Counted from the stretch's first letter, positions 6,734-52,601 are shown. The stretch is DNA of 64,000 bases from Escherichia coli (GCF_009931435.1 NZ_CP043414.1); one strand, 5' to 3'. Notes: a model not told the origin generated them from the sequence alone. Translations and numbers: made by a program.

Positions 6734-7021
6734 ATGAAACTGGCAGTCGTCACTGGACAAATTGTTTGTACCGTACGCCATCACGGACTGGCGCATGACA
6801 AATTGCTGATGGTGGAAATGATTGATCCACAAGGTAATCCTGACGGGCAATGCGCCGTCGCCATCGACAATATTGGCGCGGGAACCGGGGAGTGGGTGTT
6901 GCTGGTGAGTGGCAGTTCCGCCCGCCAGGCGCATAAAAGCGAAACGTCACCGGTCGATCTGTGCGTAATTGGCATTGTCGATGAGGTGGTCTCTGGCGGT
7001 CAGGTAATTTTCCACAAATAA
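6734..7021 (+). CDS. eutN: microcompartment vertex protein EutN (BMV/pentamer family)
   Basis: 95 aa; EutN/CcmL-like sequence; operon position. Confidence 0.88.
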   Translation: MKLAVVTGQIVCTVRHHGLAHDKLLMVEMIDPQGNPDGQCAVAIDNIGAGTGEWVLLVSGSSARQAHKSETSPVDLCVIGIVDEVVSGGQVIFHK

Positions 7022-7032
7022 GGCAGAACATC

Positions 7033-8436
7033 ATGAATCAACAGGATATTGAACAGGTGGTGAAAGCGGTACTGCTGAAAATGCAAAGCAGTGACACGCC
7101 GCCCGCCGCCGTTCATGAGATGGGCGTTTTTGCTTCCCTGGATGACGCCGTTGCGGCAGCCAAAATTGCCCAGCAAGGGTTAAAGAGCGTGGCAATGCGC
7201 CAGTTAGCCATTGCCGCTATTCGTGAAGCAGGCGAAAAACACGCCAGAGATTTAGCGGAACTTGCCGTCAGTGAAACGGGTATGGGCCGCGTAGAAGATA
7301 AATTTGCCAAAAACGTCGCTCAGGCACGCGGTACGCCAGGCGTTGAGTGCCTCTCTCCACAGGTGCTGACCGGTGACAACGGCCTGACTTTAATTGAAAA
7401 CGCGCCCTGGGGCGTGGTGGCTTCGGTGACGCCTTCCACTAACCCGGCGGCAACCGTAATTAATAACGCCATCAGCCTGATTGCCGCGGGCAACAGCGTC
7501 ATTTTTGCCCCGCATCCGGCGGCGAAAAAAGTCTCTCAACGGGCTATTACGCTGCTCAACCAGGCGATTGTTGCCGCAGGCGGGCCGGAAAACTTACTGG
7601 TTACTGTGGCCAATCCGGATATCGAAACCGCGCAACGTTTGTTCAAGTTCCCGGGTATCGGCCTGCTGGTGGTGACCGGCGGCGAAGCGGTAGTGGAAGC
7701 GGCGCGTAAACACACCAATAAACGTCTGATTGCCGCAGGCGCTGGCAACCCACCGGTAGTGGTGGATGAAACCGCCGACCTCGCCCGTGCCGCTCAGTCT
7801 ATCGTCAAAGGCGCTTCTTTCGATAACAACATCATTTGTGCCGATGAAAAGGTGCTGATTGTTGTTGATAGCGTAGCCGATGAACTAATGCGTCTGATGG
7901 AAGGCCAGCATGCGGTGAAACTGACCGCAGAACAGGCACAGCAGTTACAACCGGTGTTGCTGAAAAATATCGATGAGCGCGGAAAAGGCACCGTCAGCCG
8001 TGACTGGGTGGGTCGCGATGCGGCGAAAATCGCGGCGGCAATCGGCCTGAACGTGCCGCAAGAAACGCGCTTGCTGTTTGTAGAAACCCCCGCAGAACAT
8101 CCGTTTGCCGTGACCGAACTGATGATGCCAGTGCTGCCGGTCGTGCGCGTCGCCAACGTGGCGGATGCCATTGCGCTGGCGGTGAAACTGGAAGGCGGTT
8201 GCCACCACACGGCGGCAATGCACTCGCGCAATATCGAGAACATGAACCAAATGGCGAACGCCATTGATACCAGTATTTTCGTTAAGAACGGACCGTGCAT
8301 TGCCGGGCTGGGGCTGGGCGGGGAAGGCTGGACCACGATGACCATCACCACGCCAACCGGTGAAGGGGTAACCAGCGCGCGTACGTTTGTCCGTCTGCGT
8401 CGCTGTGTATTAGTCGATGCGTTTCGCATTGTTTAA
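7033..8436 (+). CDS. eutE: CoA-acylating acetaldehyde dehydrogenase EutE
   Basis: 467 aa aldehyde dehydrogenase family ORF; operon position. Confidence 0.9.
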   Translation: MNQQDIEQVVKAVLLKMQSSDTPPAAVHEMGVFASLDDAVAAAKIAQQGLKSVAMRQLAIAAIREAGEKHARDLAELAVSETGMGRVEDKFAKNVAQARGTPGVECLSPQVLTGDNGLTLIENAPWGVVASVTPSTNPAATVINNAISLIAAGNSVIFAPHPAAKKVSQRAITLLNQAIVAAGGPENLLVTVANPDIETAQRLFKFPGIGLLVVTGGEAVVEAARKHTNKRLIAAGAGNPPVVVDETADLARAAQSIVKGASFDNNIICADEKVLIVVDSVADELMRLMEGQHAVKLTAEQAQQLQPVLLKNIDERGKGTVSRDWVGRDAAKIAAAIGLNVPQETRLLFVETPAEHPFAVTELMMPVLPVVRVANVADAIALAVKLEGGCHHTAAMHSRNIENMNQMANAIDTSIFVKNGPCIAGLGLGGEGWTTMTITTPTGEGVTSARTFVRLRRCVLVDAFRIV

Positions 8437-45746: not shown

Positions 45747-45984
45747 AAAGACTCCAGATGAACGATGCTTTCATTGTGCGTTCTTCTGATTGATAAATAA
45801 AACTGAATTGCTTAACAATTTGTGCGCGATAATGGAGAGTGAGTGGGGGCTCGCTTCGACTGGCGGGCTGAGTTGGGCAAGCAAATCCGAACGAATCAAA
45901 TAAGGGCGGTCAATGAGTGCGCTTGATGACCGCTGTAATATTATTGCTGACGACCGTAGCCGTTTTAGTGTTATCAACGCAGGC

Positions 45985-46752
45985 TTAGAACTGATATTTT
46001 ATTGAATAAATAATGCCATCCTGGAGGAAGGCTTCACCCAGTTTATTATCTGCGTAGCGATATTGAATCCCTGCCGTAAAATGCGGTGTCGCATTCCACC
46101 AAAACGCTACTGCTCCGTTTATACCTTCTTTTCCGCCATTACCTGCTGCATATGTAGCGTCGCGGTCAAATTCGTATTCATTCCAGTTAGTCAGGCTGAA
46201 TTTTTCGCTACCAAGCGTGAAACTGTATCCGGCAACCCAGCCCAAAACATAGCCATTGTCACCGGTATAATAGGTTTGATCGGTGTAACGTTTCGCGAAG
46301 AATGGCTTAAACCAGTAACCATTTCCCGTAAAATTGTATCCAAGCCCGTAAAGGAATGTATCATCATAGAAGTTAACACGTTCAGGTGAACCGTAAGTCC
46401 CGTAAGCGTGAAGATAAAGATTCAGTCCTGTATCACCAAGATAAATGCGGTTGGTACTTTTAAAAGTATAACGTTGTTCACTGCCAGATTTTGAATGTCG
46501 GCCATTATAGAAGTTCTCCCAATCGAAGAACCCGTACATTTCTCCCCAACTAAAGTTAGCACCACCTTCTAATTCCAGATAGCCAAAATCATCTTTATGG
46601 GACTTATTACTGGTTTTCTCTGTCGTGCGGGATGTCCAGTCAAGATAATGCAGACCAATGTCAGCAAAGCCCCCTTTAAACTCGGCATAAGACATTTGCG
46701 GAAAAGCCATGGGAACCAGACCAAGGCTTAATGCAAGAAGCTGTTTTTTCAT
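45985..46752 (-). CDS. yfeN: Tsx-family outer membrane nucleoside channel-like protein YfeN
   Basis: ATG at 46752 (MKKQLLALSLGLVPMAFPQMSYA signal peptide), Tyr/Gly-rich beta-barrel sequence ending ...YQF. Confidence 0.85.
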   Translation of the reverse strand: MKKQLLALSLGLVPMAFPQMSYAEFKGGFADIGLHYLDWTSRTTEKTSNKSHKDDFGYLELEGGANFSWGEMYGFFDWENFYNGRHSKSGSEQRYTFKSTNRIYLGDTGLNLYLHAYGTYGSPERVNFYDDTFLYGLGYNFTGNGYWFKPFFAKRYTDQTYYTGDNGYVLGWVAGYSFTLGSEKFSLTNWNEYEFDRDATYAAGNGGKEGINGAVAFWWNATPHFTAGIQYRYADNKLGEAFLQDGIIYSIKYQF

Positions 46753-47005
46753 AGTATGTTCCACTTAAGTAATAAATTTAATGAATGTGATATGCTTACA
46801 TATTTATGCTGTAATTATTTGGCATGTCTATTTTATTAGATTTATGACAGCTCTAACCAATACATAATTATCACGTAATGATAGGGTGTCGATCTGAATG
46901 TCTTCAGGATTGATATCAAATTGCAATTGATATCCGTGGTAAAAAGTATTGGTAAATGTGATGAATTTCCGGTTATTTAAAGGGGGCTCAAAGTCGAAGG
47001 AGAAG

Positions 47006-48262
47006 ATGGTGAATCTAAAACTACAATTAAAAGTACTTTCATTTCTGCAATTCTTTTTGTGGGGAAGTTGGCTCAATACATTCGGTTCCTATATGTTTAT
47101 CACGCTGCGTTTTAAAGGCGAGGATATTGGTGCAGTCTATAGTACCTTGGGTATTGCAGCATTAATAACATCAACGTTATTTGGTATCGTGGCCGATAAA
47201 TGGATTAGTGCTAAATGGATATATGCCGCTTGTCATTTATTTGGCGCGATAACATTATTTGTCGCTGCATCGGTTACCACGCCTTCGGCAATGTTCATTG
47301 TCATTTTACTTAACTCTCTCGTGTATATGCCAACGCTCGGTTTGAGTAATACAATTTCCTATTACCGCATACAAACTGCGGGGATGGATATTGTGACAGA
47401 ATTTCCACCAATCCGTATTTGGGGCACGATTGGATTTATTGTCGCGATGTGGGCGGTGAGTTTGGCAGGTTTTGAATTAAGTCATATGCAATTGTATATC
47501 GGCGCGGCAGCTTCGTTAGGCTTGAGCCTGTTCACGTTGACATTACCGACTGTACCAGTGGCGAAATCTAACCAGGCGCAAGGAATGATAGACGTGCTCG
47601 GACTGCGTGCATTTGCACTGTTTAAGAACAGCAAAATGGCGATTTTCTTTATCTTTGCCATGCTGCTCGGGGCAGAACTACAAATTACCGGGATGTTTGG
47701 TAATACATTTCTCCACAGTTTTGAGAGTGTTCCAGAGTTTGCCAATAGCGTTGTTGTAACTCATGCTTCTATTTTGTTATCAATTTCTCAGATATCCGAA
47801 GTCTGCTTCATTCTTGCCATTCCCTTTTTCCTGAAAAAATACGGTATCAAAAATGTCATGCTGATGAGCATGGTGGCCTGGACGCTGCGTTTTGGTTTAT
47901 TCGCTTATGGCGATCCTTCATTCGGCGGTACCATTCTGTTAATTCTTTCGATGATTGTTTATGGCTGTGCTTTTGACTTCTTCAATATATCTGGCTCGGT
48001 ATTTGTTGAACAAGAAGTTGATCCATCGATTCGTAACAGCGCTCAGGGCGTTTTCCTGATGATGGCCAATGGTTTTGGTTGTATTCTGGGCGGTTTTATC
48101 AGTGGTAAAGTCGTCGATTATTTAACAACGGATGGCAATCCACAGTGGTCAACCATTTGGCTGGTATTTGCCGGATATTCACTGGTTCTGGCTCTCGCAT
48201 TTATGGTGTTGTTTAAATATAAACACAACAGTAACCCGACAACATCCGGTCATTTCGCCTGA
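47006..48262 (+). CDS. nucleoside:H+ symporter (NHS) family MFS transporter, NupG-like paralog additional to xapB
   Basis: 418 aa from ATG at 47006 with RBS aaggag at 46997-47002; MVNLKLQLKVLSFLQFFLWGSW... and conserved MIVYGCAFDFFNISGSVFVEQEV block shared with NupG/XapB; AT-rich by eye. Confidence 0.8.
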   Translation: MVNLKLQLKVLSFLQFFLWGSWLNTFGSYMFITLRFKGEDIGAVYSTLGIAALITSTLFGIVADKWISAKWIYAACHLFGAITLFVAASVTTPSAMFIVILLNSLVYMPTLGLSNTISYYRIQTAGMDIVTEFPPIRIWGTIGFIVAMWAVSLAGFELSHMQLYIGAAASLGLSLFTLTLPTVPVAKSNQAQGMIDVLGLRAFALFKNSKMAIFFIFAMLLGAELQITGMFGNTFLHSFESVPEFANSVVVTHASILLSISQISEVCFILAIPFFLKKYGIKNVMLMSMVAWTLRFGLFAYGDPSFGGTILLILSMIVYGCAFDFFNISGSVFVEQEVDPSIRNSAQGVFLMMANGFGCILGGFISGKVVDYLTTDGNPQWSTIWLVFAGYSLVLALAFMVLFKYKHNSNPTTSGHFA

Positions 48263-48316
48263 TACGGAATTTATCAAAATTAATAATGTTTTATAGGATT
48301 AGCAAAGGAGGATATT

Positions 48317-49246
48317 ATGGCAAATCAATTGTATAACCAGTGTCGGGTTTATTGTGCACCCTGGCGATTAGATGCTTTGAATTTAAATGATATCATTGAT
48401 CAATGGATTGACGAGGGGCTGTTGCCGCCCCTGATCCATACTTTTCTTCCATATCGTGATGATGCCGGTGCCTCCAGTGAAGAAGAGATTTTTGTTAATG
48501 ATGTCGCGAATATGGACAATAGTGTTGGGGTTATCGGTTATTTCGATGGTGGAACCTATGATTCCGGTTGTGCATGGGAAGTAGGCTATGCATGGGCTTT
48601 AGGGATGCCTGTTCACTTGGTAACGACAGACTTTCTTATATGGGCAGCGGGGAATTCTTCAGAGTTTTACCCTATAAGTAAGCTGATGAATTATGTGGCA
48701 AAAGTGGTTTCGGTGTCAGATTCCGATGCTAGCATCAGCAACTATCGTGAACAAACCAACGATATCATCAAGCGTGCGTTGCAAATTCTTCAACAAAATT
48801 TAATCGCCGACTTCGGCACGACGATTACTCCCGCTGTACCGATTACGCCATTTCCGATTGAGTATGACTATTATCTTGATCCTAACTTTATGTATACCGA
48901 ACCCTCTCGGGGCTTACTGGAGAAAATCAAAGATGCGATCATTAGTGCAGGTAAGACTTTCATCGTTGGCGACAATATGAATGATATTGCGACTGATATT
49001 GATAACTTAAGAAAATCCAGACAGGCCATCTTTTATTCCGATACCTTTGAGCCGAATGTCGACACCGGTATTATGAATGGTATTGCCTATGCATTAGGAC
49101 AGCAATCGATAGTTTATTGTAGCAAGCAACAAAAGTATCAATCTGCGCTCGCGACAGATTATTTGAATTTAATGATTACCTGGTCGTCAACGGTGGCGCA
49201 TTCATTTGCGGAGCTTGAAACATTGATTGGTAACACAGAAAAATAA
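48317..49246 (+). CDS. hypothetical protein with two tandem nucleoside 2-deoxyribosyltransferase (NDT/Rcl)-like domains
   Basis: 309 aa; domain 1 has GYFDGGTYDSGCAWEVGYAWALGMPV (NDT/Rcl-like ExGYAxALGxP core with the Glu), domain 2 has DTGIMNGIAYALGQQ (same core, Asn in place of Glu); RBS aaggagg upstream; AT-rich by eye. Confidence 0.6.
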   Translation: MANQLYNQCRVYCAPWRLDALNLNDIIDQWIDEGLLPPLIHTFLPYRDDAGASSEEEIFVNDVANMDNSVGVIGYFDGGTYDSGCAWEVGYAWALGMPVHLVTTDFLIWAAGNSSEFYPISKLMNYVAKVVSVSDSDASISNYREQTNDIIKRALQILQQNLIADFGTTITPAVPITPFPIEYDYYLDPNFMYTEPSRGLLEKIKDAIISAGKTFIVGDNMNDIATDIDNLRKSRQAIFYSDTFEPNVDTGIMNGIAYALGQQSIVYCSKQQKYQSALATDYLNLMITWSSTVAHSFAELETLIGNTEK

Positions 49247-49258
49247 TAGTTAATTTTA

Positions 49259-49298
49259 CTGATTATCAGGTGAGTGATTGCCTGATAATCAGCTTTTG
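49259..49298 (+). terminator. intrinsic terminator closing the permease/NDT-like gene pair, upstream of xapA
   Basis: ctgattatcagg / 10-nt loop / cctgataatcag perfect 12-bp stem followed by cttttgg. Confidence 0.65.
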
Positions 49299-49474
49299 GT
49301 TAACCTCCAAAGATAATTATACGGCCGTTATATTTCTCTGCTGGGGAACGATATGATCGATTTCATAATCATATTGAATATCACAGAAAAATGTATTGGT
49401 CACTCGCGACTTTTTCTAGTTATAAAAAGATGCGACTCATATCTTACGAATAATGCATATTATAAGGACTTTCC

Positions 49475-50308
49475 ATGACCCAACCTCATTTTTCACAAAA
49501 CCCGTGGTATTGCGCAGATATCATTCGTCGACATAAACCAGATTTTACCCCACGCGTGGTGTTTATTTTGGGATCGGGGCTGGGAGCGTTAGCTGAACAA
49601 ATAGAAGATGCTGTTGCCATTTCTTATAGCGATTTGCCGGGGTTTCCGGTGAGCACCGTACATGGCCATGCAGGAGAGTTGGTCCTCGGAGTGCTCTCTG
49701 GTGTGCCTGTAGCCTGCATGAAAGGTCGCGGTCATTTTTATGAGGGCCGGGGAATGACAGTCATGACTGATGCTATTCGCACGTTCAAGTTGTTGGGCTG
49801 TGAATTGTTGTTCTGCACCAACGCTGCAGGTTCGCTTCGTCCAGAAGTCGGTGCGGGTAGTCTGGTTGCGCTGAAAGATCACATTAATACGATGCCAGGC
49901 ACACCGATGACAGGCCTTAATGATGAGCGTTTTGGCGAACGCTTTTTTTCATTAGCGAATGCTTACGATGCTGATTACCGCGCCGTTTTACAAACCGTCG
50001 CGCAGGAAGAAGGTTTTCCGCTGACAGAAGGGGTTTTTGTTTCTTATCCGGGCCCGAACTTCGAAACGGCGGCAGAAATTCGCATGATGCAGCTGATTGG
50101 TGGCGATGTTGTGGGTATGTCTGTAGTGCCTGAAGTGATTAGCGCACGTCATTGCGAAATGAAAGTCGTTGCCGTGTCCGCAATAACCAATATGGCAGAA
50201 GGCTTAAGTGATGTGAAATTGTCGCATGCCCAAACCCTGGCTGCAGCAGAGTTATCACGGCAAAACTTTATTAATCTGATTTGCGGATTCTTACGCAAAA
50301 TCGCCTGA
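49475..50308 (+). CDS. xapA: purine nucleoside phosphorylase II (xanthosine phosphorylase)
   Basis: 277 aa PNP family sequence (GSGLGALAEQIE..., GHAGELVLG...). Confidence 0.9.
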   Translation: MTQPHFSQNPWYCADIIRRHKPDFTPRVVFILGSGLGALAEQIEDAVAISYSDLPGFPVSTVHGHAGELVLGVLSGVPVACMKGRGHFYEGRGMTVMTDAIRTFKLLGCELLFCTNAAGSLRPEVGAGSLVALKDHINTMPGTPMTGLNDERFGERFFSLANAYDADYRAVLQTVAQEEGFPLTEGVFVSYPGPNFETAAEIRMMQLIGGDVVGMSVVPEVISARHCEMKVVAVSAITNMAEGLSDVKLSHAQTLAAAELSRQNFINLICGFLRKIA

Positions 50309-50365
50309 AAACAATAAAAATGGCCTCGCGGATGGGGCCATCTCACTGCGATAAGGAAATAAAAC

Positions 50366-51622
50366 ATGAATATCGCAACGCGTTTAAAGGTAATGTCTTT
50401 CTTACAATACTTTATCTGGGGGAGTTGGTTAGTTACCCTCGGCTCTTACATGATTAACACCTTACATTTTACCGGGGCTGATGTCGGTATGGCATACAGT
50501 TCTAAAGGTATTGCGGCCATTATTATGCCAGCCGTTATGGGCATTATTGCCGATAAATGGTTACGGGCTGAACGTACCTATATGCTGTGTCACTTAATTT
50601 GTGCCGGGGTGCTTTTTTATGCCGCCTCTGTAACTGAACCGAATATGATGTTCTGGGTGATGTTGCTTAACGCGATGGCTTTCATGCCCACGATTGCGTT
50701 ATCCAACAGTGTTTCCTATTCGTGTTTGGCGCAGGCCGGATTAGATCCGGTCACCAGTTTTCCGCCAATCCGTGTTTATGGTACCGTGGGATTTATTGTC
50801 GCAATGTGGCTGGTGAGTTTATTGCATCTGGAGTTAAGCAGTGTGCAATTGTATATCGCCTCCGGAGCATCTCTAGTGCTAGCGGTCTATGCGTTAACGT
50901 TACCGAAAATTCCAGTGGCGGAACATAAGGCCAGTACGACGCTTTCCAGTAAATTAGGTCTGGATGCGTTTGTGTTATTTAAAAATCCACGTATGGCGAT
51001 TTTCTTTTTATTTGCCATGTTATTAGGGGCGGTCCTGCAAATTACTAACGTTTTTGGTAATCCTTTTCTGCATGATTTTGCCCGCAACCCTGAGTTTGCT
51101 GATAGCTTCGTGGTGAAATATCCTTCCATTCTGCTCTCGGTATCACAAATGGCGGAAGTCGGCTTCATTCTGACTATTCCTTTCTTTCTGAAGCGTTTTG
51201 GCATCAAAACCGTCATGTTGATGAGTATGGTAGCGTGGACATTACGTTTTGGATTCTTTGCTTTTGGAGATCCGTCACCAGGTGGCTTTGTATTATTGCT
51301 GCTGTCGATGATTGTGTATGGCTGCGCGTTCGACTTTTTCAATATTTCCGGTTCAGTGTTTGTCGAGCAAGAAGTGGACTCCAGGATTCGCGCCAGCGCC
51401 CAGGGATTATTTATGACCATGGTCAATGGCGTTGGGGCGTGGGTTGGTTCTCTTCTGAGTGGCATGGCGGTTGACTATTTCACGGTTGATGGTGTTAAAG
51501 ACTGGCAAACCATCTGGCTGGTATTTGCTGCGTATGCACTGGCCTTGGCGGTGATTTTTGCCCTGTTCTTCCGTTATAAACATGAACCTGAAAAAATGGC
51601 ACAGAAATCATTGGCTCACTGA
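50366..51622 (+). CDS. xapB: xanthosine permease (NHS family MFS)
   Basis: 418 aa MNIATRLKVMSFLQYFIWGSWLVTLGSYMINTLHFTGA...; follows xapA. Confidence 0.9.
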   Translation: MNIATRLKVMSFLQYFIWGSWLVTLGSYMINTLHFTGADVGMAYSSKGIAAIIMPAVMGIIADKWLRAERTYMLCHLICAGVLFYAASVTEPNMMFWVMLLNAMAFMPTIALSNSVSYSCLAQAGLDPVTSFPPIRVYGTVGFIVAMWLVSLLHLELSSVQLYIASGASLVLAVYALTLPKIPVAEHKASTTLSSKLGLDAFVLFKNPRMAIFFLFAMLLGAVLQITNVFGNPFLHDFARNPEFADSFVVKYPSILLSVSQMAEVGFILTIPFFLKRFGIKTVMLMSMVAWTLRFGFFAFGDPSPGGFVLLLLSMIVYGCAFDFFNISGSVFVEQEVDSRIRASAQGLFMTMVNGVGAWVGSLLSGMAVDYFTVDGVKDWQTIWLVFAAYALALAVIFALFFRYKHEPEKMAQKSLAH

Positions 51623-51696
51623 TGTAAACAGGGTTTTCCTTGATTGCAATGTGCTAAGTTTGCAGCCTTACCCATACCGTATGGAGCGCAATAATT

Positions 51697-52581
51697 ATGG
51701 AAAGTACACATCGTATTGATCTCAAGTTATTGCGCTATTTTCTTGCGGTCGCAGAAGAACTTCACTTTGGGCGGGCCGCTGCGCGGCTGAATATGTCGCA
51801 ACCGCCATTAAGTATTCATATCAAAGATCTGGAACAACAGTTGGGCACTTTGCTGTTCGTTCGGCATTCGCGCAGTGTGGCGCTCACTCATGCAGGAAAA
51901 ATTTTATTGGAAGAGTCACGTCGATTGCTGGCTAACGCCAGCCAGGCGCTGGCTCGAGTAGAACAGATTGGTCGTGGTGAAGCAGGGCGTATTGAGCTGG
52001 GCGTGGTGGGAACCGCGATGTGGGGGCGAATGCGTCCGGCAATGCGGCGGTTTTTGAAAGAGTGCCCTAATGTTCATGTCTCATTTCGTGAAAAATCCCC
52101 AGGGATGCAAATGGCGTTGCTTGAGCGGCGGGAACTGGACGCTGGTATCTGGCGGATGGCGATTGAACCAACAGTAGGATTTACCAGCCTGCGATTACAC
52201 GAATCATCGTTTCTGGTAGCAATACCGGAAGATCATTATCTGGCTTGCGAAAACGCTATCCCGTTAATGGCATTACGCAATGAATACTTTGTGACGCTGC
52301 CATCGGTCCATTCCGACTGGGCGTTTTTACAGCGTGTCTGTCAGCAGGCGGGGTTTTCACCGATGATCGTCCGCGAGGCCGTAGAGCCGCAAACCGTACT
52401 GGCGATGATCAGTATGGGGCTGGGTGTAACATTAATGGCAGATAGCTATGCCCAAATGAGCTGGCCGGGGGTGGTATTTCGTCCACTCGAGGAACGTATT
52501 CCAGCAGACTTGTATATTGTTTATGAACAGCAACAGGCAACACCAGCGCTGGAGAGATTAGTTAATGCTTTGATAGCATGA
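51697..52581 (+). CDS. xapR: LysR-family transcriptional activator of xapAB
   Basis: 294 aa; LysR HTH LKLLRYFLAVAEELHFGRAAARLNMSQPPLS. Confidence 0.88.
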   Translation: MESTHRIDLKLLRYFLAVAEELHFGRAAARLNMSQPPLSIHIKDLEQQLGTLLFVRHSRSVALTHAGKILLEESRRLLANASQALARVEQIGRGEAGRIELGVVGTAMWGRMRPAMRRFLKECPNVHVSFREKSPGMQMALLERRELDAGIWRMAIEPTVGFTSLRLHESSFLVAIPEDHYLACENAIPLMALRNEYFVTLPSVHSDWAFLQRVCQQAGFSPMIVREAVEPQTVLAMISMGLGVTLMADSYAQMSWPGVVFRPLEERIPADLYIVYEQQQATPALERLVNALIA

Positions 52582-52601
52582 AAGAAAATATCGCAGATAG
52601 C

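Follow-up and report, generated by a model that had tools for sequence, protein, structure and literature searches.

A tandem nucleoside 2-deoxyribosyltransferase-like protein of Escherichia coli as a candidate single-chain pseudo-dimer

Nucleoside 2-deoxyribosyltransferases (NDTs) are important biocatalysts for nucleoside-analogue drugs and, to our knowledge, their active sites have always been described as shared between identical subunits. Here, we describe a gene of Escherichia coli that encodes two diverged NDT-like domains in one chain. It is located on the plus strand of a 64,000-nucleotide stretch of NZ_CP043414.1 (GCF_009931435.1), referred to in the following as the window, in which the open reading frame (ORF) 48317-49246 was confirmed and translates into a product of 309 amino acids. 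We consider it probable (roughly 0.65) that this gene represents an internally duplicated, single-chain member of the NDT family which mimics the catalytic dimer of its relatives, has one working active site and uses free 2'-deoxyribonucleosides as substrate.

In the enzymes described so far, the catalytic unit of an NDT is a dimer whose two chains jointly form each active site; the NLM motif is conserved (PMC12372993) and has a role in trans within the dimer (PMC12372993, PMC12645435). Catalytically important residues reported for EfPDT of Enterococcus faecalis (7M5H) are Tyr5, Asp60, Asp80 and Glu86, plus the differently marked Asn130 and Tyr132, while for DpNDT of Desulfotalea psychrophila (7O62) these are Tyr16, Asp74, Asp94 and Glu100, plus the differently marked Asn127 and Met129 (PMC12372993); the different marking was taken here to mean “from the partner subunit.” In CtNDT, residues 111 and 118 are supplied by the neighbouring subunit (PMC12645435), the latter being the Asn of the NLM motif according to our alignment. 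Chains of DpNDT and EfPDT comprise about 150 amino acids and pair into symmetric catalytic dimers that contain two equivalent composite sites and then assemble to tetramers, whereas the E. coli protein is fused and asymmetric. LlNDT (1F8X/1F8Y) and LhPDT (1S2D) resemble the E. coli protein in their fold, in the Glu nucleophile (Glu98 in LlNDT) and in having an NLM motif, but unlike the latter they are hexamers of single-domain chains. A further difference concerns the C-terminal carboxylate of Tyr157, which LlNDT uses from the neighbouring subunit, while the C-terminus varies in length and sequence in the family of the E. coli protein. Beyond the transferases, the hydrolases DNPH1/Rcl and MilB/BlsM have the same fold and Tyr-Asp-Glu triad; they likewise use the covalent glycosyl-Glu mechanism and form dimers in which a helical extension acts in trans.

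Two NDT domains in a single chain

Homologues of the E. coli protein with the same two-domain layout form a family of about 100 cluster representatives, from which the conservation counts given below were drawn. The presence of two NDT domains could be settled because profiles were built from this two-domain family. Pfam model PF05014 matches domain 1 at residues 41-106 (E 5.9e-11, model positions 30-100 of 117) and, weakly, domain 2 at residues 225-286 (E 0.03, model positions 54-117; E 0.0046 when scanned alone), and it was matched at E<=0.1 by 21 of 36 homologous domain-2 sequences, the best of them reaching 1.1e-5. When a profile made from domain 2 only was compared to all PDB sequences, the 14 best matches were NDT chains (E 1.5e-4 to 0.04), and LhPDT, the PDT of L. 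helveticus, is matched separately by each domain of the whole-family profile (E 2e-4 and 5e-4). Moreover, profile-profile comparison of the two halves with hhalign gave an E of 0.003 in the expected register, at a probability of 10%. PHROGs contributed a sole match, of domain 1 to an NDT family, and none of the NCBIfam models matches the 309-residue protein.

An AlphaFold2 model based on a 63-sequence alignment (predicted local distance difference test, pLDDT, 95.9; predicted template modelling score, pTM, 0.94) shows the same b-a-b element order in both halves, each of which has the flavodoxin-like NDT fold, i.e., a five-stranded parallel sheet with b-a repeats. Conservation is poor around the linker, with a mean identity of 12% for residues 136-182 in the wide family. 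The tandem NDT-like nature of the protein is far beyond chance, and chance similarity is excluded.

Tandem NDT-like domains had already been proposed in an earlier note on this DNA, which was made by a model from the sequence alone and quoted one string from each half. Both strings occur in the protein, GCAWEVGYAWALGMPV as residues 84-99 and GIMNGIAYALGQQ as residues 251-263, and the proposal itself was borne out by PF05014, the domain-2 profile matches in the PDB and the profile-profile E of 0.003. Of the checks suggested there, the profile searches returned PF05014 for both halves with NDT chains as the 14 best PDB matches of domain 2, and the structure model displayed an NDT fold twice.

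A catalytic set in domain 1 and the NLM loop in domain 2

The residues required for NDT chemistry are found in domain 1, where HMMER alignments map Tyr6, Asp62, Asp82 and Glu88 onto Tyr5, Asp60, Asp80 and Glu86 of EfPDT. Among the homologues aligned at the respective position, Tyr6 is present in 93 of 94, Asp62 and Asp82 in 99 of 99 each and Glu88 in 98 of 98. Asp82, Gly84, Glu88 and Gly90 are invariant in 63/63 sequences and also kept in 98-99 of 100 homologues. The full NDT signature, consisting of the D-x5-E-x-G motif together with its Tyr and Asp partners, is thus carried by domain 1 and not by domain 2. In comparison to DpNDT and EfPDT, domain 1 shares the Tyr/Asp/Asp/Glu set at identical spacing and domain 2 shares the NLM loop, whereas Arg17 and Arg47-Asp48 (within FLPYRD), which are conserved and specific for the E. 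coli family, are absent from both enzymes. By analogy, Glu88 would act as nucleophile and form a covalent deoxyribosyl-enzyme ester, with Tyr6 positioning Glu88, Asp62 serving as acid/base and Asp82 binding the 5'-OH.

In domain 2, the nucleophile is lost. Three independent alignments pair Glu88 with Met253, Asn254 with Val89 and Gly255 with the invariant Gly. At position 253, the homologues contain Leu, Ile or Met in 94 of 100 cases and Glu in a single one, position 254 is occupied by Gln, Asn, His, Phe or Leu, and Gly255 is found in all of them (100/100). At the position of Tyr185, which corresponds to the catalytic Tyr, the wider family has Val, Tyr, Ile or Phe. The earlier note was consequently right in assigning no catalytic Glu to the second domain, but it had placed an Asn at the equivalent position, which is off by one residue. 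Asn254 was rejected as equivalent of Glu88, as Met253 occupies the Glu position.

The situation is reversed for the NLM motif. N284-L-M286 of domain 2 aligns with N127-P-M129 of DpNDT, NLM of LhPDT and N118-L-M120 of CtNDT, and Asn284 as well as Met286 are present in 97 of 100 two-domain homologues. The motif occurs in domain 2 only; its domain-1 counterpart is S121-K-L, and across the family positions 121-123 read D/S-P/K-L. The Pfam match of domain 1 likewise ends at model position 100, ahead of the NLM region. The loop before NLM was also inspected for an acidic residue that would correspond to CtNDT Asp111', but no conserved one was found. Domain 2 is conserved to the same degree as the catalytic domain, with a mean pairwise identity in the close family of 54% vs. 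51% for domain 1. The label “degenerate,” which the earlier note had used for domain 2, therefore holds with respect to the missing Glu, but not for the domain as a whole, which is conserved like domain 1 and keeps NLM.

Fusion of two NDT domains also occurs in a metagenomic protein of 330 amino acids (P0078, L096:4915-5907). In contrast to the E. coli protein, P0078 is symmetric, as both halves keep the YxxGPxF, DxDxGTxWExGYA and NxM motifs, and two active sites are predicted. This shows that NDT domains are also fused without becoming asymmetric, and that the asymmetry is specific to the family of the E. coli protein.

One composite active site and competing explanations

According to the alignments, domain 1 keeps all the contributions which a subunit makes in cis, and domain 2 the contribution made in trans (NLM). 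The simplest reading of this division is an apparent NDT “heterodimer” that was fused into one chain and has a single composite active site. The pTM of 0.94 corresponds to a confident relative placement of the two domains in the model and, together with the complementary set of retained motifs, suggests a pseudo-twofold geometry. The idea of a catalytic plus a degenerate domain forming a pseudo-dimer in one chain was put forward in the earlier note and gains support from the two NDT folds, the catalytic set of domain 1 and the loss of Glu in domain 2. It becomes mechanistically meaningful because domain 2 keeps the trans-acting NLM loop that domain 1 lost.

Mechanistically, domain 2 would have swapped its own Glu for Met, Leu or Ile and its own Tyr for variable residues, but selection would maintain it for its Asn284-Leu-Met286 loop, with which it would complete the domain-1 site in trans, comparable to the partner subunit of a homodimeric NDT. 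Conversely, the loop could have disappeared from domain 1 because the domain-2 site it would have to serve is dead. In the composite site, the N-glycosidic bond would be cleaved and the deoxyribose transferred to another base if the enzyme acts as a transferase, or to water if it acts as a hydrolase. Imported deoxynucleosides would most likely enter salvage or phosphorolytic catabolism, possibly by transfer of deoxyribose from pyrimidine to purine bases, from which a purine nucleoside phosphorylase could then release deoxyribose 1-phosphate (dRib-1-P).

A free 2'-deoxyribonucleoside is the predicted substrate because Tyr6 and Asp62 both correspond to the “2'-deoxy” state and because Asp82 and Asn284 take the place of the Ser/Ser phosphate pocket of DNPH1. 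The Tyr of strand b1 and the gatekeeper Asp go along with 2'-deoxy preference, while a Tyr-to-Phe exchange and a gatekeeper Asn favour ribonucleosides (PMC10603095, PMC12645435). DNPH1 holds the 5'-phosphate via S98, located six residues before the Glu, and S128' of the adjacent subunit (PMC10603095). At these Ser positions, the two-domain family contains Asp82 (99/99) and Asn284 (97/100), i.e., a DNPH1-type phosphate pocket is not present, which suggests nucleosides with a free 5'-OH rather than deoxynucleoside monophosphates (dNMPs). The 5'-phosphate-binding enzymes accordingly differ at this site from the E. coli protein, having a Ser at the Asp82 position combined with Ser128' (DNPH1) or Arg (MilB), while Asp82/Asn284 is the nucleoside-type pair.

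Several observations weigh against this picture of a single-chain pseudo-dimer. Direct comparison of the halves by BLASTP, the pairwise alignment recommended in the earlier note, is not significant (E 0.12), so that profile and structure methods were required, and the profile-profile comparison, although in the expected register, reached a probability of only 10%. A few family members carry GVM in place of NLM. In addition, the acidic residues Asp188 (D/E in 96%), Glu195, Asp227 and Glu245 (E/D in 98%) are conserved in domain 2, which is not explained by donation of the NLM loop, so that the domain-2 pocket may have a function of its own. Finally, transferase and hydrolase are not distinguished by any of the evidence.

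The latter point leads to an alternative with identical architecture, which we consider a serious possibility, although the less likely one: a deoxynucleoside N-hydrolase, in which water attacks the deoxyribosyl-Glu88 intermediate, yielding free deoxyribose for a sugar kinase as well as the base for salvage or deamination. In fact, the NDT-fold relatives include dedicated hydrolases, e.g., DNPH1 and MilB, and NDTs show nucleoside hydrolysis uncoupled from base transfer (PMC12645435). Furthermore, one operon harbouring a homologue encodes a ribokinase-family kinase (TIGR02152, 299.4 bits vs. a cutoff of 299.65), and an adenine deaminase gene adjoins the cassette in Citrobacter. However, in several operons the gene is accompanied by those for a phosphorylase, DeoB and DeoC, all concerned with dRib-1-P and not with free deoxyribose, and the closest proteins in sequence and structure, namely DpNDT, EfPDT and CtNDT, are true transferases.

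The conserved acidic residues of domain 2 could also indicate a ligand-binding pseudoenzyme module, with a nucleobase, nucleoside or effector as ligand of its remodelled pocket, which would provide allosteric control or a holding site for the acceptor base. We regard this as unlikely, even though domain 2 is as strongly conserved as domain 1, the four acidic residues are each found in 81-98 of 100 homologues (D/E exchanges counted) and Asp227 is the counterpart of the catalytic Asp62. The positions corresponding to Tyr6 and Glu88 are variable or hydrophobic, domain 1 does not offer an NLM loop that would complete a pocket in domain 2, and the acidic residues could equally belong to the interface or be structural.

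A nucleotide N-glycosidase, hydrolysing dNMPs or nucleoside monophosphates (NMPs) like DNPH1/Rcl, MilB or BlsM for nucleotide sanitising or degradation, would have the same fold and the same Tyr-Asp-Glu triad. Weak matches of the family profile to Rcl, MilB and DNPH1 (E 0.011-0.76) and the location of some distant two-domain relatives next to genes for a thymidylate kinase, a YfbR-like protein and a dCTP deaminase would fit to such an activity. Nevertheless, it is very unlikely here: S98 and S128' of DNPH1 are replaced by Asp82 and Asn284 as in NDTs, NDTs outscore the hydrolases by far with the family profile, and the gene is paired with a nucleoside permease, while nucleotides are not imported. 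A role in phage defence or conflict as a TIR/SLOG-like protein, e.g., as an NADase or nucleotide-depleting effector, as could be imagined from resolvase and SMODS/SLATT genes near distant two-domain relatives, is hardly credible in view of the intact NDT-specific catalytic set, the absence of any PADLOC match and a genomic context made up of the xap nucleoside locus in E. coli and of deo and ABC nucleoside operons in Clostridia.

Genomic setting, distribution and physiological context

The features of the locus are compiled in Table 1. The gene is identical to the copy in E. coli R32_14_1F and shares 99.7% nucleotide identity with ECIAI39_RS12840 of strain IAI39 (WP_000013329.1), and the same values (100 and 99.7%, respectively) apply to the surrounding region of the window. 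It already bears the PGAP/RefSeq name “nucleoside 2-deoxyribosyltransferase,” meaning that membership in the NDT family is recognised by annotation; what is new is the asymmetric, duplicated form in a single chain. In an incomplete literature collection, we found no paper on a tandem or fused NDT, on any two-domain member, on the protein accession or locus tags, or on NDT-dependent nucleoside catabolism in Lachnospiraceae. Together with the absence of the gene from K-12, this agrees with the earlier note, which knew of no characterised protein of E. coli built in such a way, although PGAP already gives the gene the NDT name.

Table 1. Coordinates of the tandem NDT-like gene, its domains and motifs, and adjacent features within the window.
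Feature	Position	Strand	Description	Basis
Tandem NDT-like gene	48317..49246	+		ORF, translation, PGAP name
Domain 1 (residues 1-168)	48317..48820	+	Catalytic NDT domain; strands b1-b5, long C-terminal helix 143-166	
Tyr6 codon	48332..48334	+	Strand-b1 catalytic Tyr (EfPDT Tyr5, DNPH1 Tyr24)	Alignment to 7m5h and 7o62; role from PMC12372993 and PMC10603095
Asp62 codon	48500..48502	+	EfPDT Asp60, DpNDT Asp74 (general acid/base of the Tyr-Asp-Glu triad)	Alignment
Motif D82-S-G-C-A-W-E88-V-G90	48560..48586	+	Asp82, 5'-OH ligand; Glu88, nucleophile (codon 48578-48580)	Alignment to EfPDT Asp80/Glu86
Inter-domain linker (residues 169-182)	48821..48862	+	Poorly conserved	No secondary structure in model
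Domain 2 (residues 183-309)	48863..49243	+	NDT fold without nucleophile	
N247-V-D-T-G-I-M253-N254-G255	49055..49081	+	Degenerate counterpart of catalytic motif; Met253 (codon 49073-49075) at Glu position	Three alignments
NLM motif N284-L-M286	49166..49174	+	In NDT dimers donated to the site of the other subunit	Alignment to DpNDT, LhPDT, CtNDT
Ribosome-binding site AGGAGG	48306..48311	+	5 nucleotides before ATG	Sequence
Terminator-like hairpin	49259..49292	+	15-pair stem, then CTTTTGG	Consensus scan only
Nucleoside:H+ permease	47009..48262	+	417 amino acids; 54 nucleotides upstream, co-oriented	TIGR00889 E 1.4e-190, PGAP
YfeN/OmpK/Tsx-family outer-membrane channel	45985..46752	-	Divergently transcribed	NF008574 E 1.3e-130
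xapA	49475..50308	+	Xanthosine/purine nucleoside phosphorylase II; directly downstream; context	

The permease encoded upstream is a probable operon partner of the NDT-like gene. It is 61% identical to XapB and represents a second permease of the NupG/XapB family at this locus, with XapB itself being encoded 2 kb downstream, and it accompanies the NDT-like gene in Escherichia as well as in Citrobacter. Directly after the stop codon of the NDT-like gene, a 15-bp hairpin with a T-run is located ahead of xapA-xapB-xapR, where, judging by sequence, it probably ends the permease-NDT operon before xapA. A promoter scan performed no better than a shuffled control and no promoter is claimed; on the strand opposite to 48317-49246 there is no competing ORF of note, and Rfam returned nothing in the intergenic regions of the permease-NDT cassette.

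In K-12, neither the permease nor the NDT-like gene is present, and yfeR is found in their place. The cassette has a guanine-plus-cytosine content of 42% vs. 51.6% for the whole window. Among 5426 complete E. coli genomes, the NDT-like gene occurs in 15, in two locus configurations. The yfeN/Tsx-family allele of the window is restricted to seven complete genomes, while the other 8 of the 15 carriers do not have yfeN at the locus. The gene is also found in E. albertii and in Citrobacter, the latter harbouring the same permease-NDT pair at a different locus beside adenine deaminase. In a set of 100,044 species-representative genomes, full-length relatives were present only in E. coli, E. albertii, a metagenome-assembled genome of the Clostridiales, two Enterocloster-type genomes and one Lachnospiraceae isolate.

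A wider region around the cassette (45810-52590) was moreover observed to be divergent from K-12, with nucleotide identities of 77% for xapA-xapB, 72% for xapR and 77% for yfeN (86% at the amino acid level). The flanks of the xap locus (ligA to yfeH, and the tRNAs to gltX) share 96.6-98.4% identity with K-12, and yfeR is absent. This suggests a replacement of the xap locus by recombination from a diverged lineage.

Outside of the Enterobacteriaceae-type loci described above, homologues were located on metagenomic contigs. On a Clostridia-type contig, the gene forms the arrangement DeoR / NDT-deoD-deoC-deoB-Bmp-ABC transporter. A second operon contains a udp-like phosphorylase, GntR, the NDT, a Bmp ABC transporter and a ribokinase, and a third one two paralogous tandem NDTs, GntR, two udp-like phosphorylases and a Bmp ABC transporter. 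The common theme of these contexts is the import of (deoxy)nucleosides along with their catabolism or salvage.

The operon DeoR / NDT-deoD-deoC-deoB does not include a pyrimidine nucleoside phosphorylase, which leads, as a hypothesis only, to a pyrimidine-to-purine deoxyribosyl shuttle feeding DeoD. A catalytic purine base would take over the deoxyribose from deoxythymidine (dThd), deoxyuridine (dUrd) or deoxycytidine (dCyd), and the resulting purine deoxynucleoside would be phosphorolysed by DeoD or XapA; the conserved acidic pocket of domain 2 might in this case hold the shuttling base. Such a hetero-dimerised single-chain NDT with one site per chain could replace DeoA in deo-type operons of gut Clostridia and, after horizontal transfer together with the permease, in a few Escherichia and Citrobacter lineages. 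We offer this scenario as a speculative one that, at present, appears rather improbable in its entirety.

Further loci with two-domain relatives were noted. Two adjacent paralogous tandem-NDT genes (L009:6026-6973 and 7001-7957) lie in a nucleoside cluster with GntR, udp and a Bmp ABC transporter; the upstream copy, P0031 and P0032 read G-V-M where the family has N-L-M. Distant relatives with about 20-26% identity (L011:2546-3484 and L012:1080-2123) are clustered with genes for a deoxynucleoside kinase, a UDG-superfamily protein, a further kinase and a methyltransferase or phosphoribosyltransferase. Both clusters are situated beside resolvases, with SMODS/SLATT genes in L011. This context is unlike that of the catabolic operons and may reflect a link to mobile elements or conflict systems. 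Genes for a PCC-domain protein, an SDF-family transporter, a thymidylate kinase, a PfkB kinase, a YfbR-like 5'-deoxynucleotidase and a dCTP deaminase follow that of another two-domain relative with 28% identity (P0047, L095:6001-6939), and this neighbourhood is a deoxynucleotide-metabolism cluster.

The basic understanding of the NDT family is left unchanged by this gene, and annotation pipelines already assign the family name. As a natural single-chain NDT, however, it would split the nucleophile and the trans-acting loop between two diverged domains and thus provide a clean case of subfunctionalisation after internal duplication. In such a protein, and unlike in a homodimer, mutations could be introduced into one half of the active site without affecting the other. 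With regard to the biology of its hosts, the gene suggests a hitherto uncharacterised step in how gut Clostridia take up and catabolise deoxynucleosides, and it marks a rare accessory cassette, composed of permease and enzyme, at the xap locus of E. coli.

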